Assembly (NCBI GenBank): GCA_963676165.1
Contig: OY781043.1
Coordinates: 294,364-358,363, forward strand
DNA: 64,000 nt
From: Bacteroidales bacterium
Lineage (GTDB): Bacteria; Bacteroidota; Bacteroidia; Bacteroidales; ML635J-15
Reading direction: 5' to 3'
Below the pieces are notes generated by a model, which worked only from the letters and a program-made list of their open reading frames with translations, was not told the DNA's origin and did not search any database. Below are positions 1,412-59,838 of the stretch, piece after piece; the first letter of the stretch is position 1, and every line of letters begins with the position of its first letter. A program made the translations under genes and the position numbers.

Positions 1412-2656
1412 ATGGGGAAAGTTATCATATTTATATTGTCAATTTTGAGCTTTTTGAATTTATCAGCTCAAAATAAAATAATAGGTTTTAAACCGGAGAT
1501 TGAACCATATATCAATTTCATCAAAGAACAACAAATTAGTCCAATAACTTACTTACTAGAAAAGTATAAAACCTATGATGTGATTGTATTTGGAGAGCGA
1601 GATCATAGAGATATAACGCAATATTATTTTTTGGAAAAACTGATAAATTCAGAAGATTTTTACAAACAGGTAAACATTATTTATACCGAGGTTGGATCTT
1701 CCAATTACAATGACACCCTTAATAAGATACTTCAGAATGATTTCTTAAGTGAAGCTGAAGTTGATCAAAAGCTTATAGAAATATATAGAGAAATCTCATA
1801 TCAAGCATTCTGGGATAAAAACAATTTTCTATATCTATGGAAAACAATTTATAAATTCAATCTATCACATCCAAATTATCCTATTACAATTAAAATGACT
1901 TCTCATCCATTTAATTGGCACGAGATATTAGATACGACCATTTGCAGAGTCAAAACACAAGAAGTTGAAGTCAATTATGATAAATCAATGGCTGAATACT
2001 TCCTGGAAAGTTTTGATGAAAACCAAAACAATAAAAGGAATAAAGCCTTTGTTATCATGAATTATCCTCATAGTTTACGAAAATGGACTTCAGATAAAGA
2101 AGTAACTTATTCCGATATGTTTGGTGCTTATGTCGAAAAAGTACTTGAAGGAAGAGTGTGTTACGTGATAGTAAATCCGTATCGAATTAATAGTTTACAG
2201 CCAGTTGCAAATGGAAAGTGGGATGCTGCATTCAAATATTGTGATTACAAAAATATTGGCTTTGATTTCAACAGTTCACCTTTTGGTAAAGATACGTTTG
2301 ATGTTTGGTCCGCTAATGGAATCCTGAGTTTTGAGAATCTCTATGATGGAATTATTTATGTTAGCCCAACATCACAATGTAAAAATATTATAGGAATTCC
2401 TGGCTTTATAGACAGGAAATTTGGAAAAGAATATTTGAGACGCATAAAATTACGTATGTATATTTATACAGGAAAAGAATATAAGACTAAGATTAAATGG
2501 GAAAGAGAGTCTTGCAATACGGTTAGAGTCAGAACGGTACAAGATGATAATGAATTTATGTATGGCGAAGATAAATCTAAATATTTTGATTCTATTGTAA
2601 ATAAGTGGTTAATATTTGAACAAAAACCAGCTAATAATAATGGCAATGGCCAATAG
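1412..2656 (+). CDS. Hypothetical secreted protein
   Basis: 414-aa ORF with an N-terminal signal peptide (FLNLSAQ). The motif VFGERDHRD is faintly reminiscent of the ChaN/erythromycin-esterase/Tiki superfamily. No firm family assignment. Confidence 0.55.
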   Translation: MGKVIIFILSILSFLNLSAQNKIIGFKPEIEPYINFIKEQQISPITYLLEKYKTYDVIVFGERDHRDITQYYFLEKLINSEDFYKQVNIIYTEVGSSNYNDTLNKILQNDFLSEAEVDQKLIEIYREISYQAFWDKNNFLYLWKTIYKFNLSHPNYPITIKMTSHPFNWHEILDTTICRVKTQEVEVNYDKSMAEYFLESFDENQNNKRNKAFVIMNYPHSLRKWTSDKEVTYSDMFGAYVEKVLEGRVCYVIVNPYRINSLQPVANGKWDAAFKYCDYKNIGFDFNSSPFGKDTFDVWSANGILSFENLYDGIIYVSPTSQCKNIIGIPGFIDRKFGKEYLRRIKLRMYIYTGKEYKTKIKWERESCNTVRVRTVQDDNEFMYGEDKSKYFDSIVNKWLIFEQKPANNNGNGQ

Positions 2657-2695
2657 AGTGTTAGAAGGAAAGATAAGCTTGGCTCCTTGTTGAAA
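2633..2695 (+). repeat. Weak attC-like repeat, site C
   Basis: AATAATAATGGCAATGGCCAATAG overlaps the stop at 2654-2656. The right side is AAGCTTGGCTCCTTGTTGAAA, with the same GTTGAAA core as site A. Arm complementarity is poor. Confidence 0.3.
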
Positions 2696-2750
2696 GGTCG
2701 CCAAATTTTAAAATCTTAATTTGGAGTGTAAAACTCCTAAAAGAGCCATT

Positions 2751-2800
2751 TGCAAATTAGCAAAGAAGATTTGATGAATGATCTGATTGAAAGTGAATAA
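2751..2800 (+). repeat. 50-bp exact copy of the 3' end of the TPR gene (matches 5929-5978)
   Basis: TGCAAATTAGCAAAGAAGATTTGATGAATGATCTGATTGAAAGTGAATAA occurs at both places. GTATCAAA follows both copies, after an extra 14 bp at the right copy. Confidence 0.9.
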
Positions 2801-3014
2801 GTATCAAATGTTAGAGTTTTGAGTGAATGTCTCAGGAAATATTATTGCTAATTCAAAGCGAAGACAGCAATCCAATATTGTTGCGCGGTTACAATATGAA
2901 GTTTGGTTCTTTCGAGCTAAATCTGAGCAATTACCTGGGCTTGACTTATGAATTCTAAGCCAAATTGTCTGCTTGTCGTGTGAGGATGATAGTTTTATGG
3001 TATAATGCTTCATT

Positions 3015-3160
3015 TTATCGAAATAAATTTGTACTTTTCGAAAAGAAACAAGCAAACTCGTTTATAAATGCTTACAAACAATTACAAATGCTTATTTCCG
3101 GATGGTAATCGATGGCTATTAAGTAGTTGTGAGAAGGGTGTGGTTATAAACGAGTTGTAA
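3015..3160 (+). repeat. Conserved ~150-bp non-coding element, copy A (hairpin CTCGTTTATAA...TTATAAACGAG ending GTTGTAA)
   Basis: It aligns by eye with 51813-51965. Shared parts are the leader TTATCGAAA..TTTCGA.AAGAAACAAGCA, 11-12 bp terminal inverted repeats, two internal AAATGCTTA(C) direct repeats, and a right end resembling the attC-like GTT core. Confidence 0.6.
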
Positions 3161-3204
3161 AACATTTGTCAGCCCATCTGCTAGTTATTGATAATTGAAA
3201 TATT

Positions 3205-3849
3205 ATGAGACTAAAACTTAATGGAAAAAAATATAGATATCGTCAGGAGTATTATAAGATTGAAGATGAACTGAAAGTAAAATTACCTTCTTATTCCATA
3301 AGTTATTCTGGCAAGGGTTTTTATAACGGTAAATGGCATCCATGTATTTTTCATTTCATAGATTCTTCAGGAAAAATGAAAATATTTATTTCTCCAGGAG
3401 GGGTATTTAAAGAAGGGATGTCTGACCTTGGCAAAGTGGATTCTCAGGGATTTGTAGATAAAATTGAGATTAAAGGTTTTAGGCGATTCCTTATTTTATT
3501 CTATGATTTTCTATTTCAAAAGAAACTTCAAATTTTAGGCATTATTGATAGAGCCAGCTTGATTAGGAAAAACTTAAGGTATATTTCCATTGCATTAATT
3601 GGTTCAATAATTTACTACCTGATTAATCACTTTTTGGATGGGTTCTTACAAGACTTGATAAATAAAAGTAACCTTGTTCAGTCTATAATAGTATTTCTCA
3701 GCTTATCAAGTATAGTTAATATATTCCACCCTTTTACTTTCCGTAAAGAGTTAAAGATTGAAGAAGTCGATGAACTGATTACAAAAAAGATACAGAAAGC
3801 TGAAAAAGAAGCAAAACGTAAGGAGGCAAATAAAAAATATTATCGATAA
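3205..3849 (+). CDS. Hypothetical membrane protein
   Basis: 214-aa ORF with hydrophobic segments (ISIALIGSIIYYLINHF, IIVFLSLSSIV) and a Lys-rich tail. Its stop lies 2 nt before the next ATG. Confidence 0.5.
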   Translation: MRLKLNGKKYRYRQEYYKIEDELKVKLPSYSISYSGKGFYNGKWHPCIFHFIDSSGKMKIFISPGGVFKEGMSDLGKVDSQGFVDKIEIKGFRRFLILFYDFLFQKKLQILGIIDRASLIRKNLRYISIALIGSIIYYLINHFLDGFLQDLINKSNLVQSIIVFLSLSSIVNIFHPFTFRKELKIEEVDELITKKIQKAEKEAKRKEANKKYYR

Positions 3850-3851
3850 TA

Positions 3852-4367
3852 ATGGAGAATGCGATAAAAAATAGAATACCGATTCATGTGGACTTAGAGC
3901 CAAATCGCGATGAAGTTTTTACAGGGATTTGTATAAAGGAAAATCATGAAGTCTTCATTTTTATTTGCTTCAATGAGGAGACAAAGGAATATGATGGATA
4001 CGCCATTTTGAGAAGTCAAGAAATAGAGCAGTATCGATATTGGGATAATGAGGAGCTAAGTGAGATTAAGACTGATAACCACATAGATTTCCTAAATAGA
4101 TTACCGCTGGATAAAATGAATTCATTCCATGAATGTTTAGTTGCATTAAGAGAAAAGGAATTGATTGCCATCTTTACATCAGACGATAATGATTCTTATT
4201 ATGTAGGAAGGATTAATAACCTATCTAATAGTAAGGTAACATTAAAGTTGCTGAGTGAATCTTCAGAGTGGCTGGATGAAAAGAAAATTGATATTGACAA
4301 TATTACGTACATTGGTTTTGATACCAGCTATGAGAAAGAGTTGATTAAAAACGTTTTACAACAATAA
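3852..4367 (+). CDS. Hypothetical cytoplasmic protein (probably co-transcribed with 3205-3849)
   Basis: 171-aa ORF, tightly coupled to the upstream ORF. Its stop codon overlaps the attC-like left core ACAACAATAA. Confidence 0.5.
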   Translation: MENAIKNRIPIHVDLEPNRDEVFTGICIKENHEVFIFICFNEETKEYDGYAILRSQEIEQYRYWDNEELSEIKTDNHIDFLNRLPLDKMNSFHECLVALREKELIAIFTSDDNDSYYVGRINNLSNSKVTLKLLSESSEWLDEKKIDIDNITYIGFDTSYEKELIKNVLQQ

Positions 4368-4486
4368 ATATACGTAATGCGGGGCGATTTTCTAAATTTG
4401 AACTTTAAAGCATTTAATAAACAACTTAGCGGTTTGATAGTGAAGTGCCTTGAAATCCCGCACTACGCATATTCGAGCCGTTATGG
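4358..4486 (+). repeat. attC-like imperfect inverted repeat, site D
   Basis: The left arm ACAAC-AATAAATATACGTAATGCGGGG pairs with the right arm CCCGCACTACGCATATT-CGAGCC-GTTATGG. It has the central motif CGGTTTGATAG. GTT lies 18 nt before the ATG at 4498. Confidence 0.6.
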
Positions 4487-5093: not shown

Positions 5094-5172
5094 ATAACAA
5101 TTAATAAAAGGCTTAGGCTTGATAGATTCTTGCTTCAAAATGCGCAACGTTTTGTACAGCCATCCGTTGGCA
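5094..5172 (+). repeat. Degenerate attC-like repeat, site E
   Basis: ATAACAAT...GGCTTGATAG...CCATCCGTTGGCA keeps the left core, central motif and right core of the family. The arms pair poorly. Confidence 0.3.
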
Positions 5173-6469: not shown

Positions 6470-8179
6470 GGCGCCAGACTGTCTAATAACCTTAATAAGT
6501 TTGTTAATAAAGATTTTGCATGAATTCATGTTAAAGGAAAGGATATTAGTACCTTACAATATGAAATTTATAAAAGGAGAAAGTAGGTATTTAAAAAGTC
6601 TATTCCCAGTATCTTTAGAAGAAAGCATTGGTGAGGATAATGAAATTCGCATTATTGACGCATTTGTTGATAATTTAAACTTTTCTGAATTGGGATTTAG
6701 AACACATTACAGAGAAACAGGTCGTCCGGCCTATCACCCCAAAGATTTACTAAAGCTATATATTTATGGATATATGAATAGCATTAGATCATCACGTCGG
6801 TTAGAAAAAGAATGCAAACGAAATATTGAATTGATGTGGCTTTTAAATAATTTGTCACCAGATCATAATACTATATCGAATTTCAGAAAGGACAATTCCA
6901 AATCAATAAAGAAAGTTTTCAGAGAGACGGTTAAGTTATCTCAGTATTTTGAACTTATTGGAGGCGAATTGGTTGCAGGAGACAGCACAAAGCTTAGAGC
7001 CCAGAATAGCAAAAAGAATAATTTCAATCAGAAAAAGATAGAGCGACATCAAGAATATATCGAAAGAAAAATAGAAGAATACGAACAAGAATTAAGTAAT
7101 AACGATGGTGATAATCAGGAAATATTAAAAAAGATTGAGAACAAAAAAGAACTTAAATCAAAGTACGACCGCATGTCTGAGGAATTAACTAGAGATAAAG
7201 AAACACAAATATCAACTAGTGATCCAGATAGTCGAAATATGACTCTTCGAAATAATATATCGGAAGTCGCTTACTGTGTTCAAAGTATGGTTGACGCTAA
7301 GCACAACCTGCTGCTGGACTTTATTGTGACGAACAAAGGTGATAAAAACGCAATGGGAAATATGTTGCAACGTACTAAGTCTATTTTACGTAATACTACT
7401 TTTACTGCTTTATTTGATACTGGATACCATTCAGGGAGAGAGCTAAAAAAAGCAGATGATTTAGGCATCAATGTTCTGGTAAATGTACCTTCTACACCAC
7501 ATGCAAACCAAATTCCTGACCCAAATTATTGTATAAGCAATTTTGTATATGACAAAGAAAATGACACATATACATGCCCAGAAGGTGAAATTTTAATAAC
7601 TAATGGGAATTGGTGTAACGCAAGAAATAAGAATGGAGAAGTTTATTACAGATTTAAAAACTATGGTACCGTTAAATGCAAAGAATGTCCCGTTAGGTCT
7701 AAGTGTACAATAAATAAAAAAGGTCGTAGAATAAAAAGAAGTGAATATGCCGAGAACATACAGTCTAACACGAAACGAATGATTGATTTAAAAGATAAAT
7801 ACCGGCAGCGGAAAAGCATAGTAGAACATCCATTTGGAACAATGAAACGACAATGGGGATACGACCACATAATAACGAAAAAATACATTAAACGAGCAAC
7901 AGCAGATGTTGGGTTGATTTTTTCATGCTATAATATCAAGCGATTAATAAATATTCTGGGAATTGATGCACTAATCGAATCTTTCAATAAGGGAAAGAGG
8001 TTTTGTGCTCAAATATTAACCAGATATGGAATCAAATTAAGACTTTTAAGACCTCTAAATTATTTACACAAACAAGGCTGCACAAAATCAATCCCTAATT
8101 ATTACTACTTATTTAGCAACTATAGGCTTATGAGGGCATGAATTTTTAGAAAATCTTAATTATCAGACAGTCTGGCGCC
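6470..8179 (+). mobile_element. IS1182-family insertion sequence
   Basis: The terminal inverted repeats GGCGCCAGACTGTCTAATAA (6470-) and TTATCAGACAGTCTGGCGCC (-8179) have one mismatch. They enclose a single DDE transposase ORF in 1710 bp. Confidence 0.8.
6561..8141 (+). CDS. IS1182-family (IS5/IS4-like DDE) transposase
   Basis: MKFIKGESRY...RIIDAFVD...TGRPAYHPKDLLKLYIYGY...SSRRLEKEC is the typical IS1182 N-terminus, and HPFGTMKRQWGY the typical C-terminal motif. The upstream TTG-started extension is probably not translated. Confidence 0.8.
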   Translation: MKFIKGESRYLKSLFPVSLEESIGEDNEIRIIDAFVDNLNFSELGFRTHYRETGRPAYHPKDLLKLYIYGYMNSIRSSRRLEKECKRNIELMWLLNNLSPDHNTISNFRKDNSKSIKKVFRETVKLSQYFELIGGELVAGDSTKLRAQNSKKNNFNQKKIERHQEYIERKIEEYEQELSNNDGDNQEILKKIENKKELKSKYDRMSEELTRDKETQISTSDPDSRNMTLRNNISEVAYCVQSMVDAKHNLLLDFIVTNKGDKNAMGNMLQRTKSILRNTTFTALFDTGYHSGRELKKADDLGINVLVNVPSTPHANQIPDPNYCISNFVYDKENDTYTCPEGEILITNGNWCNARNKNGEVYYRFKNYGTVKCKECPVRSKCTINKKGRRIKRSEYAENIQSNTKRMIDLKDKYRQRKSIVEHPFGTMKRQWGYDHIITKKYIKRATADVGLIFSCYNIKRLINILGIDALIESFNKGKRFCAQILTRYGIKLRLLRPLNYLHKQGCTKSIPNYYYLFSNYRLMRA

Positions 8180-8929: not shown

Positions 8930-11314
8930 ATGACCAATATGGATGATTATCAGTTTAAAGGAAAACGCGTTTTAATTCGTGTCGATTTCAATGTCCCTTT
9001 GAATGAAAATGGTGAAATAACCGACGATACACGAATTGTAACAGCCGTGCCTACAATTCAAAAAGTGCTTACTGAAGGCGGTTCTGTCATCATCATGACA
9101 CATCTTGGCCGTCCGAAAGGACAATTTAATGAGGCTTTAAGTGTAAAACGCATCTCTGATTATGTGTCCGGAATGCTAGGTCGTGAAATTATTGTTGCGG
9201 AAGATTGCATAGGCAAGGAAACGGAAAAACTGGCAGCATCACTCAAAAAAGGACAGGTGCTCATGTTGGAAAATCTTCGTTTTTATAACGAGGAAACTGC
9301 CGGCGATGAGGAATTTGCGAAAAAATTGGCCAAACTTGGTGATGCTTATATCAATAATGCCTTTGGAACTGCCCATCGTGCGCACGCATCCACCTACACC
9401 ATCGCGAAATTTTTCCCTTACGACAAAATGTTGGGATATTTGGTGGAGTCTGAAGTGAAAAACATTGATAAACTCCTGAAAAAAGCCAAATCACCCTTTA
9501 CTGCAATCATTGGAGGAGCAAAAATTTCCACAAAAATTGACATCATCGAAGCCTTGATGGAGAAAGTGGATAATTTAATCATTGGTGGGGGTATTGTCTT
9601 TACCTTTCTGAAAGCCAAAGGACTAGAAGTTGGAAATTCTTTGGTTGATGATGATTATATTGAGGTGGCAAAACGTATTCTTGACACAGCTCGTGAACGA
9701 AATGTCAAAGTGTATCTCTCAGAAGATGTGTTGATTGCAGATAATTTTAGCAATGAAGCCCAGATAGAGCATGTTCCTGTTTCTGCCATCAAACCCGGTT
9801 GGATGGGAATGGATATTGGTGTAAAATCTGCTGAATTGTTTGAGCAGGTCATTGAAAATTCTGAAAGCATTTTGTGGAATGGTCCTATGGGCGTCTTTGA
9901 AATGCCTCACTTTGCTTATGGTACGCTGAAAACAGGTTTGTCTGTGGCACGTGCTACCGATAAAGGTTCTTACTCTTTGGTTGGTGGAGGTGATTCCATT
10001 GCTGCCTTAAAAAAGTATGCATTGGAACATAAAATTTCTTATGTCTCAACTGCAGGTGGAGCCTTACTGGAGTATATTGAAGGGAAAAAATTGCCAAGTT
10101 TACGCGCAATTAGGGAAACTCACAGCATGGATGATTACGATTTCCGTGGAAAACGTGCTCTTGTTCGTGTGGATTTCAATGTCCCTATGGATGAGAATTT
10201 CAAGATTACCGATGATACACGTATCCGTACTGCGATTCCAACGCTTCGGAAAATTCTTGCAGAAGGAGGATCTATCATTCTTTTAACTCACATTGGCCGT
10301 CCGAAAGGTCAGCGAATGGATAAATATTCTGTTCGACATATTATTCCTTATGTTTCGGATTTGCTTGGTACCGAAGTGCAATTTGCAGATCGTTGTCGTG
10401 GCGATAATACTGAGAAAATTGCAAAACAGCTTAAGCCTGGCGAAGTGCTGATGCTTGAGAACCTCCGCTTTACCAATGAAGAAATTGAGGGAAGTGAAAG
10501 TTTTGCTGAAGAATTAAGTCGTCTTGGGGATGTGTACATCAATAATGCCTTTGGTACAGCGCATCGTGCACATGCTTCAACATATACCATTGCAAAATTC
10601 TTCCCTGAAGATAAAATGCTTGGATATCTGATTGAAAATGAAATTAACAACATCAATCGCATATTGTACAAAGCTGAGCGTCCGTTTACCACTGTCATTG
10701 GGGGATCAAAAATCTCAACTAAAATCAATATCATTCGTGCTTTGATGGATAAAGCCGATAATGTGATTATTGGTGGCGGGATTGCCTTTACCTTTATCAA
10801 AGCCATGGGTGGAAATATTGGAGATTCTCTCGTTGAGGAGGATTCATTGGATGTGGCACGTGAAATACTTGATTATGCTGCACGTAGCTCAGTGAAATTG
10901 TATCTTCCAACAGATTGTTTGATTGCCGATGCATTTGAGAAAAACCCAAAAATTCGTCATGCCAAAGCAAACAATATTCCTGACGGATGGAGGGGTTTAG
11001 ATATCGGTGTGAAAACAGCGGAAACCTATACGAAAGTGATAGAAAACTCCAACGCTATTCTTTGGAATGGTCCGATGGGAGTATTTGAAATGCCGTATTT
11101 TAGTAACGGAACAATCAAAATATCTCTGGCAACAGCGCGTGCAACCGATATGGGAGCGTTTTCACTTGTTGGTGGTGGAGATTCTATTGCAGCACTAAAA
11201 CGCTATGGTATGAGTCATAAAATTTCGTATATTTCAACTGCGGGAGGTGCTTTGCTTGAGTACATTGAAGGAAAAGAATTACCAAGTTTAAAAGCAATAC
11301 GCACAAAGATATAA
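8930..11314 (+). CDS. pgk: Tandem-fused phosphoglycerate kinase (two complete PGK modules: residues 1-399 and 400-794)
   Basis: Both halves carry VRVDFNVP, TH(L/I)GRPKG, ENLRF, NNAFGTAHRAHAS, GG(A/S)KISTKI, WNGPMGVFE, GGGDS and STAGGA. There is no stop between IRETHS and the MDDYDF at 10127. Confidence 0.85.
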   Translation: MTNMDDYQFKGKRVLIRVDFNVPLNENGEITDDTRIVTAVPTIQKVLTEGGSVIIMTHLGRPKGQFNEALSVKRISDYVSGMLGREIIVAEDCIGKETEKLAASLKKGQVLMLENLRFYNEETAGDEEFAKKLAKLGDAYINNAFGTAHRAHASTYTIAKFFPYDKMLGYLVESEVKNIDKLLKKAKSPFTAIIGGAKISTKIDIIEALMEKVDNLIIGGGIVFTFLKAKGLEVGNSLVDDDYIEVAKRILDTARERNVKVYLSEDVLIADNFSNEAQIEHVPVSAIKPGWMGMDIGVKSAELFEQVIENSESILWNGPMGVFEMPHFAYGTLKTGLSVARATDKGSYSLVGGGDSIAALKKYALEHKISYVSTAGGALLEYIEGKKLPSLRAIRETHSMDDYDFRGKRALVRVDFNVPMDENFKITDDTRIRTAIPTLRKILAEGGSIILLTHIGRPKGQRMDKYSVRHIIPYVSDLLGTEVQFADRCRGDNTEKIAKQLKPGEVLMLENLRFTNEEIEGSESFAEELSRLGDVYINNAFGTAHRAHASTYTIAKFFPEDKMLGYLIENEINNINRILYKAERPFTTVIGGSKISTKINIIRALMDKADNVIIGGGIAFTFIKAMGGNIGDSLVEEDSLDVAREILDYAARSSVKLYLPTDCLIADAFEKNPKIRHAKANNIPDGWRGLDIGVKTAETYTKVIENSNAILWNGPMGVFEMPYFSNGTIKISLATARATDMGAFSLVGGGDSIAALKRYGMSHKISYISTAGGALLEYIEGKELPSLKAIRTKI

Positions 11315-11334
11315 TGCAAATAAACTAAGCTATT

Positions 11335-12633
11335 ATGGAAATTAATTTGCCGAAAATTCAAGATGCTGACCTGAATGGAAAAGTTGTCCTTGTTCGTGTC
11401 GATCACAATGTGGTGAAAAAGGGTGTGATTCACGATCCTTACCGTATTGACGCAACGATTGGAACCCTGTATCATATCAATGCAAAGGGCGGGAAAATCA
11501 TTTTAATGACACACGTGGGAAGACCGCGTGACAAAAAGGACAATAGCATTCATATTAGTGATGATACTTCGGTAAAACCCATTGTCGATTACTTAAACAA
11601 CAAATTGCATATCAATATTCAGATACCGGAATTTGTACCGCATGGCGATCAAGGATATTTGGGCTTGGAGACTTCCATTAACCACATGATTCGTGAACTT
11701 CGAAATGGCGATATCGATGGAATTTACTTACCAAATACACGTTGGTTTGCCGGTGAAGAAGCAGATGGCGATGTGTCAGATCGTTTTGGATTGCAGCTAG
11801 CTGGTTTAGCAGATGTGTTTGTCAACGATGCATTTGGATCATGGCAACCTCACACTTCAACGGTGAAAGTCAACGATTATTTGCCTTCTTATGCAGGATA
11901 TCTCATGCAAAAGGAAATTGCTAATTTAGAGCGTATTTATAAAGCTGAGCATCCTTTTGTGGCAGTGGTTGCAGGGAGTAAAATGGACACGAAAATTGAG
12001 TCCCTTTATGCGCTTTTAAAAATTGCTGATAAATTGGTTTTGGGCGGTGTCATTTACAATGCCTATTTGTGCGCAAAATATGGAATTCGAATCAAAGGAG
12101 TTGATGAGGGGAACTTGGCACTTGCAAAAGAGTTTGTGAAATATGCTGAGGATTATTCTGATAAGATTTTGGAGCTGGAATACATCATTGAATCTGATAT
12201 TTTGGAAGGCAAAGAAAATGGAAAATACAGAATGCATCACATTCAGGACTTAAAAGAGGATCAGGAATTGAACTATGTGTTGGATGTTGCTCCAGAGTCC
12301 TTTCATCAAGAAAATGTTTGTCAGGTATTTAAAAATGCTAAGACAATTTTTATCAATGCAGTTATGGGTTTTACTCCGCATTTTAATGATGGAACCATTG
12401 CATTGGATGAGCTAACAGATTCAAATTTGGATGCTGTGAAGTTATACGGTGGTGGAGATACCATGCAAGAGTTAAAACGTTTACTCCCAGGTTTGTATAT
12501 TGTCGCTTTGGACAATCCAAAATACTACATTTTCACCGGTGGTGGTGCAGTGCTAAAAGCCATACAAGAAGGAACCTATGCAGGCTTAGAGCCCGTAAAG
12601 GCTTTGGTTGAAAACCAGAAAAAGAATCTGTAA
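11335..12633 (+). CDS. Divergent phosphoglycerate-kinase-like paralogue
   Basis: It keeps VRVDHNV, THVGRP, NTRW, VNDAFGS, AGSKMDTKI, GGGDT and TGGGA. It has SWQPHTS in place of AHRAHAS and INAVMGFTP in place of WNGPMGVFE. It starts 20 nt after the fused pgk. Confidence 0.7.
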   Translation: MEINLPKIQDADLNGKVVLVRVDHNVVKKGVIHDPYRIDATIGTLYHINAKGGKIILMTHVGRPRDKKDNSIHISDDTSVKPIVDYLNNKLHINIQIPEFVPHGDQGYLGLETSINHMIRELRNGDIDGIYLPNTRWFAGEEADGDVSDRFGLQLAGLADVFVNDAFGSWQPHTSTVKVNDYLPSYAGYLMQKEIANLERIYKAEHPFVAVVAGSKMDTKIESLYALLKIADKLVLGGVIYNAYLCAKYGIRIKGVDEGNLALAKEFVKYAEDYSDKILELEYIIESDILEGKENGKYRMHHIQDLKEDQELNYVLDVAPESFHQENVCQVFKNAKTIFINAVMGFTPHFNDGTIALDELTDSNLDAVKLYGGGDTMQELKRLLPGLYIVALDNPKYYIFTGGGAVLKAIQEGTYAGLEPVKALVENQKKNL

Positions 12634-36536: not shown

Positions 36537-36623
36537 GGAGAGATGGCAGAGTGGTCGAATGCGGTGGTCTTGAAAACCATTGACCGTGCGAGCGGTCCGG
36601 GGGTTCGAATCCCTCTCTCTCCG
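36537..36623 (+). tRNA. tRNA-Ser (anticodon TGA)
   Basis: The acceptor stem GGAGAGA/TCTCTCC closes correctly. The anticodon loop is CTTGAAA. There is a long variable arm and a GGTTCGAATCC T-loop. CCA is not encoded. Confidence 0.9.
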
Positions 36624-51812: not shown

Positions 51813-51965
51813 TTATCGAAAATATCTCTACCTTTCGAGAAGAAACAAGCACAAGCACGCTCGTTTATAAATGATTACATTTATTTATAAATACTTACCA
51901 TGCAGTTGATATTGATTGATTGTTAGGTGTTTGTGAAAGGAGTTGTGGATATAAACGAGTTATGC
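51813..51965 (+). repeat. Conserved ~150-bp non-coding element, copy B (hairpin CTCGTTTATAA...ATATAAACGAG ending GTTATGC)
   Basis: It is homologous by eye to 3015-3160. Its right end GTTATGC is identical to the right core of attC-like site F. It sits at the left border of array 2. Confidence 0.6.
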
Positions 51966-52064: not shown

Positions 52065-52286
52065 ATGGATATCCAAACAAAGAAATATCATTTGATAGAG
52101 TGGATTACGCAAATAAGGGATTCGCAGCTTCTCGACAAGTTGATGCGGCTTGCTACAGAAAATGATTGGTGGGAAGAAATAAGTCAGTCAGAGCGAGATG
52201 CCATAGAAGAAGGTTTGCGAGATTTGTCAAAAGGGAATTTACATGATCATTCAGAAGTGAAGAAGCTTTATGAAAGATATCACTAG
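52065..52286 (+). CDS. Putative antitoxin (addiction-module component)
   Basis: 73-aa acidic ORF that overlaps the following RelE/ParE toxin ORF by 17 nt. Confidence 0.6.
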   Translation: MDIQTKKYHLIEWITQIRDSQLLDKLMRLATENDWWEEISQSERDAIEEGLRDLSKGNLHDHSEVKKLYERYH

Positions 52287-52569
52287 GGTTGTATGGTCAG
52301 ATCGGGCTGTCTCTGATTTGAAAAATATCATTAATTACCTTGAAGACAATTGGACGCAAAAAGAGATAAATAAATTTACGCTAAAACTTGAAAAACAAAT
52401 TTCAATAATAAAGGAGCATCCGAAAGCTTTTGTTGCTACTAATCACAATAATGTTAGAAGAGCAGTAATGACAAAACAAGTAACACTTTATTATGATTTA
52501 GAAGAATCGACAATTAGAATCGTAACATTATTTGATACACGTCAAAGTCCGACCGAATTGCAATTCTAA
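52270..52569 (+). CDS. Type II toxin, RelE/ParE family
   Basis: 99-aa ORF. W..RA..DL..I..Y and the C-terminal IRIVTLFDTRQSP are typical of ParE/RelE-like toxins. Confidence 0.7.
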   Translation: MKDITRVVWSDRAVSDLKNIINYLEDNWTQKEINKFTLKLEKQISIIKEHPKAFVATNHNNVRRAVMTKQVTLYYDLEESTIRIVTLFDTRQSPTELQF

Positions 52570-52612: not shown

Positions 52613-52694
52613 GCATAACAATAAATATATATCAGCTGCGCGAGTTTGATACGCAATAGTGGCGCAGCCGCTACATATTTGCATACCGTTATGC
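52613..52694 (+). repeat. attC-like imperfect inverted repeat, site F
   Basis: GCATAAC (52613-52619) and GTTATGC (52688-52694) are perfect complements. The inner pairs are AAATAT/ATATTT and CTGCGC/GCGCAG. GCATACC is unpaired next to the right core. The central motif is GAGTTTGATAC. Confidence 0.65.
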
Positions 52695-52773: not shown

Positions 52774-53146
52774 ATGATTCATGAAATTGATATAAAGCCT
52801 ATTCATAAGAGGTTATTATTTAGCTTAGGTCATTTGGATATATTTTTCAATAGTTATTATTGCTTTAATAGCTTATGAGAAAGGACTTTTTGAAGCCATG
52901 ATTTTTTGCATTATTTGGCTAACACTACTCTTTGTGAAAATATTTTATGATTCTCGGTATTTTGTATCAAGAATATCATTTGATGAAAATATAACGGAGC
53001 ATCTACTAATGGAAGCGAAGGAAAATAGAACAAAAATTTGTGTTCTTCATGCTTCGAAAATGGGGGACCCAATTTATACAAAGCTTGGTTTTCAAAAATA
53101 TGGAGAAATTGAAACCTATAGAATATTGAAAGAAAAGAATAACTAA
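52774..53146 (+). pseudogene. Disrupted cassette ORF ending in a GNAT acetyltransferase C-terminal remnant
   Basis: A 33-codon ORF from 52774 stops, and reading resumes at 52898 in another frame. Only the last ~45 aa (ITEHLLMEAKENRTKICVLHASKMGDPIYTKLGFQKYGE) look GNAT-like. The N-terminal GNAT motifs are absent. Confidence 0.5.
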
Positions 53147-53262
53147 AGCTGACACTGTATATACAAGGTAGGCGGAATGGTAGTAAATTCAACGGTTGTA
53201 GCCCGCTTAAAATTATCTCGGTTTGATACATTTGAAGCCCGCAATCGCCTACATTTGCATAC
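53139..53262 (+). repeat. attC-like repeat, site G (left and central part; the right core is displaced to 54348-54360 by the intron)
   Basis: ATAAC overlaps the TAA stop. The sequence aligns along its length with site H (ACACTGTATAT..GTAGTAAATTCAA..TCGGTTTGATA..CGCAATCGC..CATTTG). It is broken after GCATAC. Confidence 0.65.
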
Positions 53263-54347
53263 GTGTGCCAAGAAGCAGTACATCGGCATTAAACAGTACT
53301 GCATGCTTTAATTGAGATGGTGGAATCCGTCAGTTGACGGATGATCCCCCCGAAGTCGATTTCCAGGAAAGGGCTTCAACCCACCTAAAGATGCTGTGTT
53401 GAAGAAGCATGGTATTGAGCGTTTAGGAAAATACAGTCCATGAGACTGTCAGGAATGTGTACAGGAGATGAACGAAAGAGAACCATTGATGAAGAGTCGA
53501 GAAAGTGGAATCCTCAGTCAAAATCCGTATAAGTATGAATGCGGTTATAAGTGCAACGGTTACCTGTTTATTGGTTGCACGATTGGCGTCATTTAGATGG
53601 CATGAACTGTACACAGGCTCAGTTAAGGAACTTGGGAATCTGATCGGGAATGTAAAGGGAAGCACAATAAAATCAATCTAGAGGCGAAATACCAAAAACC
53701 CGAATCAGAGACGGACTAACCCGTAGTAGTGATGAATTCCTGTAATGGGAATAGAGCAAAGGGGTTAGGTTATACAGAGTCATAACATTTAACAACTTGT
53801 AAGAGGATGAATTTATGGAATGAGACAAAATCAGTACCGATAAGTCGCCAAATGATTTGGCAGGCTTATAAGAAAGAGAAAGCCAACAAAGGAAGTGCAG
53901 GTGTCGATTCAGTAAGCATGGAGATATTCGATGCAAACAGAAGTAAACACTTGTATAAACTTTGGAATCGAATGATATCGGGGAGTTATTTCCCTCCACT
54001 AGTCAAAGAAGTTGAGATTCTTAAAAAAGACGGCAAAGTCCACAAGTTAGGTATTCTAACAATAGCAAATTTCGTGGATACGAACTGTCAAGAGTATTTT
54101 ATCTGCTACGATGTCGACTGGTACGCTGGGCACGAAAACGGTATAAACGCTACAGAATAAGTTTGACAAGAGTCTGTAAATTGTTATACAGGGTTAGGAA
54201 GCAATATCCTTATCTGTTTTATCACTGGCAATTAGGATTTTCAAATTAAAAGTAGCAGATTTGTATAACAAGAGCCGTATGACGGGAGACTATCACGTAC
54301 GGTTCTGTGAGAGGCTTAGGGTGAAACTCCCTTTACCTATTCGACAC
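53263..54347 (+). mobile_element. Group II intron, ORF-deleted derivative (bacterial class C-like)
   Basis: The 5' end is GTGTG. The RT N-terminus (53807-54070) reads SAGVDSVSMEIF...YFPPLVKEVEILKKDGKVHKLGI. The IEP C-terminal remnant is RWARKRYKRYR...YPYLFYHWQLGFSN* (about 54125-54250). Domain V is GAGCCGTATGACGGGAGACTATCACGTACGGTTC (54272-54305). A domain VI-like stem follows. The proposed 3' end ...CGACAC is inferred by alignment of the flanks to site H. Confidence 0.75.
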
Positions 54348-54395
54348 TTGTCCGTTGTAGTTAATGCAAAAGAGAGTTTCGTTCAAAATGAAACT

Positions 54396-54977
54396 ATGAA
54401 AAGATTAGTAGAAAATATTGAGACTTATATTAGCTTAAATCAGGAAGAATTGTCTTTGCTTGAAAAATTTTTGACAAAAAAAACTTATAATAAAAAGACT
54501 ACCTTTTTTGAAGAAGGAAAAATTGCTAATGAAATATATTTTGTTTCTAAAGGTTGTGTTCGCCTGTTTTATAATGTAGACGGTAACGATAAAACTGCCT
54601 TCTTTTATACAGAAGGACAATTTATATGTGCAGGAGAAAGCTATACTTTCAATACACCGGCCATAGAAAACTATCAAGCAATTGAAAATACTGACTTGAT
54701 AATATTCACAAAGTCAGACATTGAAAAGTTAACGCTACTGTTACCAAGAATAGAGGTAATTGCACGAGTTGCTGTGGAGAATGAATTAATAACTAGTCAA
54801 AAAGTGATTGCTTCATTTGTGACAAAATCGCCGGAAGAACGTTACCTTGACTTGTTAAATACTCAAAAAGAACTTTTCCAAAGAGTTCCACAACAGTATA
54901 TTGCATCGTTTCTTGGAGTTTCGCCGGAAACACTAAGTAGAATCAAAACAAGAGTTTACAAAAAAGAACGTTCTTGA
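54396..54977 (+). CDS. Crp/Fnr-family transcriptional regulator
   Basis: It has a cNMP-binding fold (FFEEGKIANEIYFVSKGCVRLFY) and a C-terminal HTH (QQYIASFLGVSPETLSRIK). The listed ORF start at 54261 lies inside the intron. Confidence 0.8.
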   Translation: MKRLVENIETYISLNQEELSLLEKFLTKKTYNKKTTFFEEGKIANEIYFVSKGCVRLFYNVDGNDKTAFFYTEGQFICAGESYTFNTPAIENYQAIENTDLIIFTKSDIEKLTLLLPRIEVIARVAVENELITSQKVIASFVTKSPEERYLDLLNTQKELFQRVPQQYIASFLGVSPETLSRIKTRVYKKERS

Positions 54978-56530: not shown

Positions 56531-57610
56531 ATGAGAATGAACTATGAATTCAAATATCTTATTGCAGGAATAATTATATTGATTTCATTAAATCAATCAT
56601 CTGGACAAGAAATTAAGATTTCTGAAAATCTTGTTTTGTACAAATTGTCAGAATGTTGTTATGAGCATACTCAAAAGGGTAATAACGGATTGGTTTACAT
56701 AAATAATGGAGAAGCTGTTATTGTTTCAACTCCCGATTCAGATACCGAAACTCAAAATTTAATAGATTGGGTTCGAAATGAACAACACGCTAAAATTGTT
56801 GCTTACGTAATTGACAGATGGCATCCCGATGCAATGCAGGGTTTAGATGTCGTTAAAAAAAATGACATAAAAAGCTATGCTTATGAATTAACCCGACAGA
56901 TAGCCAAAGAAAAAGGGTTGCCTGTTCCTGAATTTGGGTTTAATCCTAAAAAAGAGATAAAAGTTGGAAATCAAAAGATAATTTGTCATTTTCTGGGAGA
57001 GTCACATACACCGGATGGGATTGTTGTTTGGATTCCAAATGAACAAATACTCTTTGGCGGAAATGAAATTCGGAATTATAACGGTTGGGTTGGAAATATT
57101 GGCGATGCAAACCTTGAAAAATGGTCAGAAACAGCAAAAAACATTAAAAGAGAATATGGCTCTGCTAAAGTTGTAGTCCCGGGACACGGGGAATATGGTG
57201 GCTCTGAATTAATTGATTACACGATTGATTTGTTCAGCCTTCCCCAAAACGAATTGTTTATTGATAGTACTGAGACTGTTGTTGCTTTTAACAAAAAAAC
57301 AGAAGATGAATTTATTGTGAAAGCTGAATTTGATTCAATTCAAGACGGGAAACGTATTTTAAAAAATGCGACTGTAATAATTCAGGATAAAACAAAATTT
57401 ATAGAGATTGAATCTCCTCAGATTAATATTTCTATGGACAACACAAAAATTGATTCTGAAATTGGAAGAGTAAAAATTTATGACAAGAAAACAGACTGTG
57501 AAGAGTTAAGAACGGATGTGAATTATAGAAAACTAATCATTTATAAATATGACGAAGACACTGTTGGATTTGTAGTAATATTGAAGGGAATAGAAAATAA
57601 CAATCGTTAA
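56531..57610 (+). CDS. Subclass B1 metallo-beta-lactamase-like secreted protein with non-canonical metal ligands and a C-terminal extension
   Basis: GESHTPDGIVVWIPNEQILFGGNEI and VVPGHGEYG align with the B1 motifs GHT.DN.VVW.P....LFGGC..K and PGHG. The HxHxD position reads RWHPD, and the Cys of GGC is Asn. About 125 extra C-terminal residues follow. Confidence 0.6.
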   Translation: MRMNYEFKYLIAGIIILISLNQSSGQEIKISENLVLYKLSECCYEHTQKGNNGLVYINNGEAVIVSTPDSDTETQNLIDWVRNEQHAKIVAYVIDRWHPDAMQGLDVVKKNDIKSYAYELTRQIAKEKGLPVPEFGFNPKKEIKVGNQKIICHFLGESHTPDGIVVWIPNEQILFGGNEIRNYNGWVGNIGDANLEKWSETAKNIKREYGSAKVVVPGHGEYGGSELIDYTIDLFSLPQNELFIDSTETVVAFNKKTEDEFIVKAEFDSIQDGKRILKNATVIIQDKTKFIEIESPQINISMDNTKIDSEIGRVKIYDKKTDCEELRTDVNYRKLIIYKYDEDTVGFVVILKGIENNNR

Positions 57611-57735
57611 CACTGTATATGTAAAATAGATGGAATTGTAGTAAATTCAAGGAGCTTAGCTCGCTTTGAAGTTGTTTCGGTTTGATAGTTTTGTAGTCCG
57701 TAATCGCTCCATTTGTATATACTTGACCGTTACAA
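57597..57735 (+). repeat. attC-like imperfect inverted repeat, site H
   Basis: ATAACAAT overlaps the stop codon region. The arms are GTATATGTAAAATAGATGGAATTGTAG and TCCGTAATCGCTCCATTTGTATATAC. The central motif is TCGGTTTGATAG. The right end is TTGACC-GTTACAA, 21 nt before the ATG at 57750. Confidence 0.65.
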
Positions 57736-58625: not shown

Positions 58626-59838
58626 CTAAGTACATGACAAAAATTTTTCAATGTGAATATCATCTTGACAAACAGGATTTAACAAAACTGAAGCAATATA
58701 TTTCAAACCATATTTAAACAAGCTCATTGCTTTTCTTCCATGCCTTTAGGTCTTGACTTTGTTCACATTGTAATGCAAAAATATTCCAACTTTATAACAC
58801 CAGACAAAAGCAATCATTACCAGTAAAATAAGGTTTTGTAAACGTGGAGTTTCACTGAGGTGAGTTTTTTCAATGTCAAATCCACTCGATTTCATAGCTT
58901 TAAAACAAGTTTCAATTTGCCAGCGTTTTTCATAAAAGAACTTAGCCTGATCTGGTTTGTTGAACGAAGCTATAATTAAGAAATCGTTCTTGCCATCCTT
59001 ACCTTTTATTTTACAACCAGAAATATAGCAAAGCTGATCACCAATTTTGACAAGTTTTGAATAACGCTTGAATTGACCAACATCAAGGGAGTTAAATAAC
59101 CAATTAGCTTTTACTTTCTTTGATTTGTACGGGAGGTATAACTTGAAGTTATTACGAATACGAATATAATACCGAATTTGATGCTCGTTTAGAAACTCAA
59201 GCCAGCGTTCCCCAACAAATTCACGATCAGCTACAAGGCAGTCAATACATTCTTGTCCAAACAGATTAATAAAACGCTTTACAAGATCTATCCGCTCTGA
59301 CGAATTTGAGTTACCTCTTTTATTAAGTAGTGAGAACATTACCGGGAAGGACAAACCTTTATATGCCACACCAAGCATGAAAATATTGATATTAGTTTTT
59401 CCAAACTTCCAGTTTGTTCGATCAATTGTAAGTACAAGTTTTTCTTTCTTTGGAAGTAAGTTGAATATCAAGCGAGCAACCAAATCAGGACATAGATTAT
59501 AGAGACCAATAAAGCGTTGAATCCGCCTATGACTACTACTTGCTTTAGCCCTGGAATTAAAAGCCGAAGACAGCTTCTCAAAATTAACTGTCTGAACTTT
59601 ACACAGGGCTACAATAAACAGTGACAGAAATTTAATTCTTGCCAAGTTCAATTTTCCTTGGAATTGTTCTTTTAAAATTGAAACTAATTCAGTACTTTTA
59701 TCTTCTACCTTGGTATTCTTATTCATTACAAAAGACTTAGGAATCCTTTGTAAGATACTGGATATCAAGGTATTTACCAAATTTTATAGCAGTTATTTTA
59801 CTGATTTTCAGCGAATTAATTTTTTGTCATGTACTAAG
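58626..59838 (-). mobile_element. IS4-family insertion sequence
   Basis: The 18-bp terminal IRs CTAAGTACATGACAAAAA (58626-58643) and TTTTTGTCATGTACTAAG (59821-59838) have one mismatch and enclose one DDE transposase. No unambiguous TSD was seen. Confidence 0.8.
58746..59780 (-). CDS. IS4-family DDE transposase
   Basis: LTIDRTNW, LVADREF and YEKRWQIETCFKAMKSSGF give the DDE triad with the Y-2-R-3-E-6-K signature. Confidence 0.85.
   Translation of the reverse strand: MVNTLISSILQRIPKSFVMNKNTKVEDKSTELVSILKEQFQGKLNLARIKFLSLFIVALCKVQTVNFEKLSSAFNSRAKASSSHRRIQRFIGLYNLCPDLVARLIFNLLPKKEKLVLTIDRTNWKFGKTNINIFMLGVAYKGLSFPVMFSLLNKRGNSNSSERIDLVKRFINLFGQECIDCLVADREFVGERWLEFLNEHQIRYYIRIRNNFKLYLPYKSKKVKANWLFNSLDVGQFKRYSKLVKIGDQLCYISGCKIKGKDGKNDFLIIASFNKPDQAKFFYEKRWQIETCFKAMKSSGFDIEKTHLSETPRLQNLILLVMIAFVWCYKVGIFLHYNVNKVKT

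Follow-up and report, generated by a model that had tools for sequence, protein, structure and literature searches.

A group II intron with a deleted protein gene inside an attC-like repeat of a Bacteroidales bacterium, and a putative class-D-like lineage targeting such repeats in Bacteroidota

Group II introns specialised on the recombination sites of gene cassettes are recognised in a single lineage, the class C introns termed IIC-attC. These insert into the bottom strand of attC at R″ (TTGT/T), antisense to the cassettes, and recognise a bulged stem-loop together with a short intron-binding site 1 (IBS1) (PMC3001079, PMC7923331). Only two sense exceptions are reported in the latter source, an unusual IIC intron and a CL1/IIB intron located just after an attC site. 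Class D introns are characterised by the C-terminal motif LX3AX3PXLF[V/A]HW in a protein of ~ 419 amino acids (aa) (PMC4615759). Here, we describe a group II intron at 53263–54345 (+ strand) of a 64,000-nt stretch of genomic DNA (the window) from a Bacteroidales bacterium (family-level lineage ML635J-15; assembly GCA_963676165.1, contig OY781043.1, positions 294,364–358,363). It interrupts a repeat that we call site G. The element is probably a non-autonomous, endonuclease-less intron of IIB type with class-D-like features, and it occupies what would be the lineage's homing site, namely the L′ arm, on the coding strand, of a ~ 125–130-nt attC-like hairpin repeat that stands between co-oriented cassettes in Bacteroidota.

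The lineage resembles IIC-attC introns (S.ma.I2, Kl.pn.I3; class 1 and other integrons) in its preference for the recombination sites of cassette arrays, in the absence of an endonuclease domain and in an insertion point near the 3′ side of the folded hairpin on the intron strand. Whereas IIC-attC introns belong to class C, recognise hairpin and IBS1 and lie antisense in the bottom strand at R″, the introns described here appear to be of IIB type and class-D-like, use exon-binding sites 1 and 2 (EBS1 and EBS2), and lie sense in the top strand within L′, 7–10 nt 5′ of the GTT of R′. A first-pass annotation of this DNA, made from the letters alone, had stated that IIC-attC introns are usually antisense to cassettes, as the literature bears out, and had noted that strand and position depart from the classical pattern; this observation stands, with a distance to GTT of 8 nt rather than the 6 nt it gave. 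The introns also resemble RmInt1, RmInt2 and Sr.md.I1 (class D, IIB3; Sinorhizobium): the proteins have 416–419 aa, lack DNA-binding and endonuclease (D/En) domains, share a PxLFxHW C-terminus and are 45 % identical almost without gaps, the same Rfam model matches domains I–IV, EBS1 and EBS2 act on a ~ 13-nt 5′ exon, homing is into a repeated element, and some insertions are head-to-tail tandems (PMC4615759). Insertion sequences of Alphaproteobacteria are the targets of RmInt1-type introns, whereas the present lineage occupies hairpin repeats between cassettes in Bacteroidota, has two residues of the class D motif changed and has no identified EBS3. UHB.I2, a IIB1/CL1 intron from a soda-lake metagenome, is likewise non-IIC, attC-associated and in the same orientation as the cassettes, but is a single case of class CL1 and lies after attC rather than inside it (PMC7923331). 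An Enterobacter cloacae integron intron is, as far as its citation in PMC7923331 goes, in the top strand of attC and sense; it is a single class C intron and not an attC-specialised lineage. Neither a lineage of class D or sense-strand introns that home to attC nor the presence of these introns in Bacteroidota arrays is described in the papers we searched, which cover the literature incompletely.

The identity of the intron rests on two Rfam matches on the + strand at gathering thresholds. The domain I core is matched by group-II-D1D4-2 (RF01999) at 53336–53454 with 83.4 bits against a gathering score of 36, and domains V and VI are matched by Intron_gpII (RF00029) at 54270–54345 with 62 bits. 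The first-pass annotation had proposed an intron lacking most of its open reading frame (ORF) and had named a search with ribozyme models as a check, and both parts of the ribozyme were thus recovered. General hallmarks of group II introns are present as well: GUGUG and …GAC ends, an EBS1 in domain I that pairs with the 5′ exon, a domain V (54272–54305) with an AGC triad and a 2-nt AC bulge, and a domain VI (54308–54345) with a bulged A 7 nt from the 3′ end. The 5′ junction, set by the EBS1–IBS1 pairing, falls at 53262/53263, where the exon …CATTTGCATAC gives way to the intron start GTGTGCC, as had been read before. The 3′ end is most likely at 54345, judging from the canonical AY terminus (…UUCGAC), from the Rfam alignment, which also stops there, and from comparison with 28 relatives. 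The earlier reading had placed it 2 nt further on, at 54347 after …CGACAC; its claim that the downstream flank restores the repeat holds, and the shift of the boundary puts the insertion point 8 nt 5′ of GTT. The intron is thus 1083 nt long. Its excision in silico rejoins a hairpin repeat of ~ 130 nt that aligns with an intact copy, site H, at 57605–57735; with the boundary at 54345 the rejoined site G (…GCATAC|ACTTGTCCGTT) aligns to site H without a gap, and 19 of 22 positions match. Spliced RNA exons would read …GCAUAC|ACUUGUCC across 53262/54346. The Rfam scan found no second intron copy within the 64-kb window.

Relatives of the intron are widespread. A protein search with both remnants of its protein gene returned hundreds of fragments of Bacteroidota group II reverse transcriptases (RTs), one of them being the ORF of the window itself, on a 3.94-Mb contig, and several others being differently deleted. 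A genome scan gave 57 loci, mostly in Prolixibacteraceae, Marinilabiliales and other Bacteroidales and also in the flavobacteria Salinimicrobium and Salegentibacter. Both intron ends could be mapped in 28 copies, on which the boundary comparisons rest. Full-length relatives measure 1.83–2.04 kb and begin with GTG[TC]GCC, and the 3′ end is CTCGA[CT] in 28 of 28 (CTCGAC in 27, CTCGAT in one). In nearly all of the 28, the 3′ flank consists of 7–10 nt followed by (C)CGTTRRRY, and motifs of site G recur in the 5′ flanks. Insertion is therefore at the same place across the lineage, inside the repeat stem and 7–10 nt ahead of the GTT core. Since about 28 relatives share this position, the homing site is, on these alignments, a property of the lineage and not an accident, and this applies to the insertion position in the window too.

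A sister subfamily, with proteins ~ 61–64 % identical, is placed differently: in L043 (3307–3440) and L042 (486–620) the repeat is complete and the intron begins 10 nt downstream of its GTT (cgttAGCGGCAAGC|GTGTGC). These two loci imply at least two points of insertion around the same repeats in the broader clade, and their placement resembles that of UHB.I2 more closely.

Recognition of the repeat could be traced by covariation. A domain I loop at 53533–53538 covaries with the end of the 5′ exon (UACACG/CGUGUA, UAAGUU/AACUUA, GUAAAAA/UUUUUAU and UGCCUG/CAGGUA in different copies), and in an unbiased scan of all alignment columns against all exon positions, exon positions −1 to −6 paired with consecutive antiparallel columns in 85–100 % of cases, with 3–6 pair types each. 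This covariation identifies the interaction as EBS1–IBS1. In the window copy, EBS1 (GUAUGA) makes 5 pairs with exon CAUAC, IBS1 being CATAC at 53258–53262. A second loop, AAGUG at 53503–53507, located between GAGAA[AG] and CUGUCAAAAG, pairs with exon positions −11 to −7 here (IBS2, CATTT at 53252–53256) and with positions ~ −8 to −13 in relatives, again with covariation (AGGGGU/GCCCCU, AGUUGCC/GGCAACU, AGUGC/GCACU, AGUAGC/GCUACU and GGGCG/CGCCC). This EBS2 was missed by the first column scan owing to insertions and deletions in the loop and was found by a loop-anchored search. For EBS1 and EBS2 alike, an intron fits its own exon better than it fits the exons of other introns: none of 5000 permutations reached the observed mean, a count that is not a strict probability given that the copies are phylogenetically related.

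The EBS2 pairing bears directly on the class of the intron. The first-pass annotation had framed it as a class C intron of the IIC-attC kind, which would recognise a folded attC hairpin together with a short IBS1 and would merely be in an unusual orientation. Such an intron would have no EBS2, whereas here the second loop covaries with the exon. Also contrary to that framing, the ribozyme sequence 5′ of the ORF extends for ~ 545 nt, and insertion is in the 3′ strand of the stem on the coding strand and not at the bottom-strand R″ TTGT/T. IIC introns typically have a CGC triad in domain V; that of the window copy is AGC. The lineage is therefore not placed in class C, because of its EBS2, the length of its 5′ ribozyme and the AGC triad. 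A class C intron would share the hairpin target and the lack of an endonuclease domain, and IIC RTs are the nearest among solved structures: in a PDB ranking of the L033 protein (419 aa, encoded by the Salinimicrobium marinum KCTC 12719 copy), GsI-IIC scored 1e-50, the E.r. protein 6e-48 and LtrA 1e-34. We dropped a class assignment based on this ranking; none of the PDB matches listed is labelled class D or is closer than the IIC RTs, so it is uninformative on class. Taken with the similarities to class D described next, the features named above make class C membership highly improbable.

The intron-encoded proteins (IEPs) of full-length relatives have 416 and 419 aa and end shortly after the maturase domain, without D/En domains. 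Among the matches listed from a plasmid collection, the best relative outside Bacteroidota was a multi-copy intron of Sinorhizobium meliloti, whose IEP of 419 aa carries the exact class D motif. The 45 % identity to this protein extends over 405 residues with 2 gaps (399 bits); the full-length protein scores 176 bits against GsI-IIC, under a different scoring scheme. RF01999 matches the Sinorhizobium class D intron too, with 114 bits. In the window and in the relatives the C-terminal motif reads L-x3-R-x3-P-x-L-F-Y-H-W, which keeps 9 of the 11 fixed class D features. IEPs from Klebsiella and Serratia plasmids are only ~ 32 % identical over part of their length, and none of those among the listed plasmid matches is a known IIC-attC intron. 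One Serratia plasmid match (H20) was considered as S.ma.I2 and rejected, as that intron sits in the plasmid backbone. The lineage thus appears to be class-D-like and of IIB type.

The target itself is a structured repeat. The 5′ part of site G (53147–53262) comprises a degenerate R″ (AGCTGAC, 53147–53153), the 5′ arm, the centre and the L′ arm up to the insertion, and matches a profile of the repeat at 53152–53262 (E 8e-14). Its 3′ part (54346–54360) consists of ACTTGTCC followed by the R′ core GTTGTAG, with GTT at 54354–54356. Site H (CGTTAAC … GTTACAA) is an intact copy that ends a metallo-β-lactamase cassette and matches the profile at 57608–57731 (E 1.5e-16). A short variant of 82 nt, site F (52613–52694), was read from the sequence; its ends (GCATAAC … GTTATGC) are fully complementary, and its profile match is weak (E 38 at 52616–52640). 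It follows a toxin–antitoxin (TA)-like pair of small overlapping ORFs (52065–52569), and its 3′ arm, …TTTGCATAC, contains the IBS1 of site G, unoccupied. Two further members lie at the left end of the window, a distant one at 75–199 (E 2.6e-13) and another at 4359–4482 (E 3.4e-13), both matching profile columns 1–125.

Across the relatives, rejoined targets measure 106–153 nt; they begin with an RYYYAAC-like sequence and finish with GTTRRRY, and the two are often mutually complementary (GGCTAAC/GTTAGCG, TATTAAC/GTTAATC, GCATAAC/GTTATGC). Iteration of the profile over the window and the loci gave 81 copies, 80 of them on the intron strand, in arrays spaced 0.6–1.5 kb apart; L033 has seven copies, L014 five, and L007, L022 and L043 four each. 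We aligned 50 distinct complete or near-complete copies over 125 columns and found pairing along one anti-diagonal (i + j = 124). Columns 13–17/107–111 and 21–24/100–103 are paired in 75–98 % of copies, with up to 5 pair types per position. In the stem register 71 % of cells are paired, compared with 27–42 % in shifted registers and 45 ± 1.5 % (maximum 51 %) after shuffling of the 3′ arms. YAAC (columns 1–4) and GTT (columns 123–125) are nearly invariant in the ~ 50 copies, with columns 2–4 and 124–125 always paired, and column 123 paired with C or T at column 1, in the copies scored. Mismatches at A14/C110 and A19/A105 are conserved, and an asymmetric spacer (A versus NACC) lies next to AAC/GTT. 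The repeat centre is unusually conserved for an attC. The first-pass annotation had taken the intron as support for hairpin-forming repeats; that argument is weak, and the hairpin follows independently from this covariation, so that the intron does lie inside an attC-like hairpin repeat, as the annotation had also stated. Single-sequence DNA folding of sites G and H was unremarkable on its own (z-scores −0.3 to −2.0). With 13 rejoined repeats aligned by MAFFT, RNAalifold predicted no structure, the arms being out of register; the profile alignment with column-pair statistics was used instead. Rfam at relaxed thresholds gave no match for the repeat. Matches to DUF805b (RF02914) in L003 (1362–1396 and 2848–2882), just above threshold and intergenic in a cassette-like array, are not attC-like, without AAC…GTT ends.

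Interrupted copies all stop at profile column 112–115, and the insertion falls between columns 113 and 114, inside the L′ arm of the stem. IBS1 corresponds to columns 108–113 and IBS2 to columns ~ 100–106, and the two together make up the 3′ (L′) strand. In effect, the EBS loops of the intron imitate the 5′ arm of the repeat and take its place in the pairing.

The surroundings of site G are those of a cassette array. The stop codon of the upstream ORF (53144–53146) abuts R″ of site G, and the next ORF starts at 54396, 36–40 nt after R′. Elsewhere in the window ORFs likewise end at R″, with a stop codon inside R″ at site H, and the following ORF begins 20–45 nt past R′. Not every cassette would hold a single gene, as the G–H interval contains three ORFs. 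Local cassette-like genes are the TA-like pair, a small GNAT-like fragment, a Crp-like regulator, an NmrA-like protein, a B1 metallo-β-lactamase and a lipoprotein, followed by an IS4 transposase. The flanking ORFs are on the intron strand, in agreement with the first-pass annotation, and over the 28 loci flanking ORFs amount to 79.1 kb on the intron strand versus 10.9 kb on the other. By the usual attC convention, the intron is thus in the top strand and has the sense orientation relative to the cassettes.

The window copy has lost most of its protein gene. A remnant ORF of 117 aa at 53807–54160 (+) encodes RT0–RT2 in its first ~ 85 aa (MNLWNETKSVP…KLGILTI) and is out-of-frame read-through in the rest; the N-terminal part is 70–86 % identical to many Bacteroidota group II RT fragments. 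In another frame, by comparison with the L034 protein, a C-terminal IEP remnant (KFRGYELSRV…RWARKRYKRY…L-YRV-R-KQY-P-Y-LFYHW…) extends over 54067–54249 (+). It retains the last ~ 60 aa of the IEP, and its tail …YPYLFYHWQLGFSN* stops at 54249, 22 nt ahead of domain V. The earlier outline of ~ 540 bp of ribozyme, an RT N-terminus of ~ 85 aa and an IEP tail is therefore accurate. BLAST comparison with L034, L033 and L003 located the deletion junction at 54062–54072: intron positions 1–801 correspond to L034 1–817 and positions 814–1083 to L034 1641–1909, as expected from a single internal deletion of ~ 825 nt. Its length is not a multiple of 3. The deletion reaches from RT motif 2 to the end of the thumb/X domain of full-length copies. 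It removed RT motifs 3–7 and most of the thumb (domain X), which is the missing RT core of the first-pass annotation, and left domains I–III, the start of domain IV, the 5′ 255 nt of the ORF and domains V and VI. Full-length relatives score 414 bits on TIGR04416, and the window copy lacks the intact domain IV RT/maturase. Since the deletion is out of frame, no maturase could be made from this copy, which on its sequence is non-autonomous and would at best depend on protein supplied in trans.

Other features of the window copy suggest that it is now an immobile, decaying relic. Domain V, described in the first-pass annotation as a textbook example, is not quite that: its distal stem (GACGG/CUAUC) contains a C·A mismatch, where all 28 relatives have U–A or C–G. 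In domain VI, a C·A and a G·U take the place of Watson–Crick pairs of the relatives. At 18 of 252 otherwise conserved positions of the 5′ ribozyme the window copy has private changes, against a family median of ~ 6. Site F, 600 nt upstream and with the same IBS1 (GCATAC), carries no intron. Relic status is suggested by the mispairs together with this empty matching site. Alternatively, the copy could still be a functional non-autonomous element, spliced and mobilised in trans by a full-length copy elsewhere in the genome. Domains I–III, V and VI are retained along with the 5′ 255 nt of the ORF, and the protein-binding element DIVa is normally located in the 5′ part of an intron ORF. EBS1 and EBS2 still fit the copy's own exon, and ORF-less relatives are frequent and sometimes lie beside full-length ones (L027, L040 and L049). 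We nevertheless consider trans-mobilisation rather unlikely, given the mispairs in domains V and VI, the excess of private changes, the unoccupied site F and the absence of a second copy from the window and of the deletion junction from the metagenome contigs searched.

Loss of the ORF has recurred among the relatives. L053 carries three separate deletions. In L027, a 371-nt stub (7211–7581) that consists of only the first 166 and the last 198 nt of an intron occupies its own repeat; the array also contains, 2 kb upstream, a full-length intron to whose ends those of the stub show 95 % and 88 % identity. In L040 and L049, a full-length intron is immediately followed head-to-tail, within a single repeat, by a 621-nt ORF-less one (5349–5969 in L040; from 5351 to the contig end in L049), which has its own GTGTG start, domain I, domain V and domain VI; the 3′ end of the repeat resumes only afterwards (cataaaCCGTTACATG). 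The first 24 nt of the window intron matched only one other metagenome contig, Ga0224514_10003949 (L060; reverse strand, 2606–3324), which holds a 719-nt ORF-less relative. In this relative, domain V apparently contains a ~ 60-nt insertion in the terminal loop, and a GTT occurs in the 3′ flank only 26 nt downstream. Four IEPs with different internal deletions, all in frame, were found among the database matches (P0001, P0003, P0004 and P0039), all of which retain RT0–2 and the C-terminal ~ 50 aa. The repeated retention of both ends of the IEP gene may reflect RNA elements that overlap the ends of the ORF.

By analogy to class D introns such as RmInt1 (PMC4615759), the intron RNA would reverse-splice into the L′ strand, probably when this is single-stranded at the replication fork, and the RT would copy the inserted RNA from a nascent lagging-strand primer. 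On the intron strand, GC skew is positive for the window as well as for 19 of 20 loci, which is consistent with lagging-strand insertion. Being sense to the cassettes, the intron could be removed by splicing from read-through transcripts of the cassettes. In the DNA, L′ and R′ are kept apart by the intron, which should disable the recombination site.

Several observations weigh against the interpretation of the element as a class-D-like intron homing into attC-like recombination sites, and against parts of the scheme built on it. The class D motif carries two substitutions (A→R and V/A→Y), and strict membership of class D is unproven. Two scans for EBS3 gave no column with more than 74 % pairing with position +1, and EBS3 was not identified. 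The fork-primed lagging-strand mechanism is borrowed from RmInt1-type introns, and the GC-skew test is confounded by coding-strand bias. The 18 private changes may merely reflect the phylogenetic distance of the window copy from the sampled copies. No tyrosine recombinase or integron integrase was found in the window, and among the recombinases beside related arrays that of L007 has XerA/XerC-like proteins rather than VchIntIA as its nearer relatives.

The recombinases raise the question of whether the repeats are integron attC sites at all. Those beside the arrays in L007, L012 and L046 fall below the cut-off of TIGR02249 (integron integrase), with split matches, and the L007 protein exceeds a cut-off only for the generic NF040815 ("tyrosine recombinase/integron integrase"). 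The repeats could instead be another kind of structured intergenic repeat, such as sites of a Xer-like recombinase or elements resembling repetitive extragenic palindromes (REP-like), into which the intron homes as RmInt1 does into an insertion sequence; the missing Rfam match and the well-conserved repeat centre would agree with this as well. Against this stand the often complementary RYYYAAC…GTTRRRY ends, a length of ~ 80–150 nt with a covarying imperfect stem and conserved mismatches, arrays of short co-oriented ORFs that include toxin–antitoxin, GNAT and β-lactamase genes, and stop codons inside R″. Integrons have, in addition, been reported in Bacteroidota (PMC8618304). We therefore regard a non-attC identity as unlikely. 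The repeats have the sequence, structure and array organisation of attC sites; as the link to a recombinase is not established and no bona fide integron integrase was found, we call them attC-like rather than attC.

The reading of 53263–54345 as a class-D-like intron at its lineage's homing site has consequences beyond this copy, which is itself a degraded member of modest interest. At the level of the lineage, the finding is a further form of group II introns that target cassette recombination sites, and it points to a second class that does so by a different route. A stronger proposition is that a class-D-like lineage of Bacteroidota has independently specialised on the recombination sites of cassette arrays, with EBS1 and EBS2 directed at the L′ arm, sense orientation, a sister branch inserting after R′ and recurrent ORF-less derivatives; here we find the arguments for and against about evenly balanced. 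If it is true, targeting of attC by retroelements has a second, mechanistically different origin. The introns could then be spliced from cassette transcripts while physically disabling the site, and they could lock or fuse cassettes; sense introns would also fit models of intron-mediated cassette formation better than the antisense IIC-attC introns do. The lineage bears on the co-evolution of retroelements and cassette arrays, on the splitting of L′ from R′ as a modulation of cassette excision, on whether splicing lets cassette transcripts tolerate insertions and on the proposed part of group II introns in building cassettes. Over many natural sites, the covarying EBS/IBS pairs also constitute a ready natural data set on intron retargeting.

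Further features of the window deserve mention. The ORF at 56531–57610 (+) encodes a "long type" subclass B1 metallo-β-lactamase (NF041269, 531 bits against a cut-off of 350) whose stop codon lies inside R″ of site H; the chromosomal, cassette-like setting of a B1 enzyme in Bacteroidota may be informative on how integron-borne metallo-β-lactamases arose. A region at 55.9–56.5 kb, inside the G–H interval, is without a long ORF. An IS4-family transposase gene at 58746–59780 (− strand; NF033591, 238 bits) comes directly after the final cassette-like ORF, and the array may be truncated by it. The left cluster, ~ 44 kb from the G/H cluster, consists of the repeats at 75–199 and 4359–4482 and a partial match at 5116–5168, and its ORFs between 223 and 8141 are all on the + strand. 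Apparently ordinary genes and a tRNA (36537–36623) separate the two clusters. A sequence of ~ 75 nt at 3022–3094 recurs at 51819–51897 with 81–82 % identity, in each case in front of a series of cassette-like ORFs (before 3205 and before 52065, respectively), and may be a leader or promoter element of the two clusters. Finally, three tandem paralogous segments at 8939–12479, spaced 1188 nt apart and ~ 70–80 % identical, suggest a tandem gene triplication.

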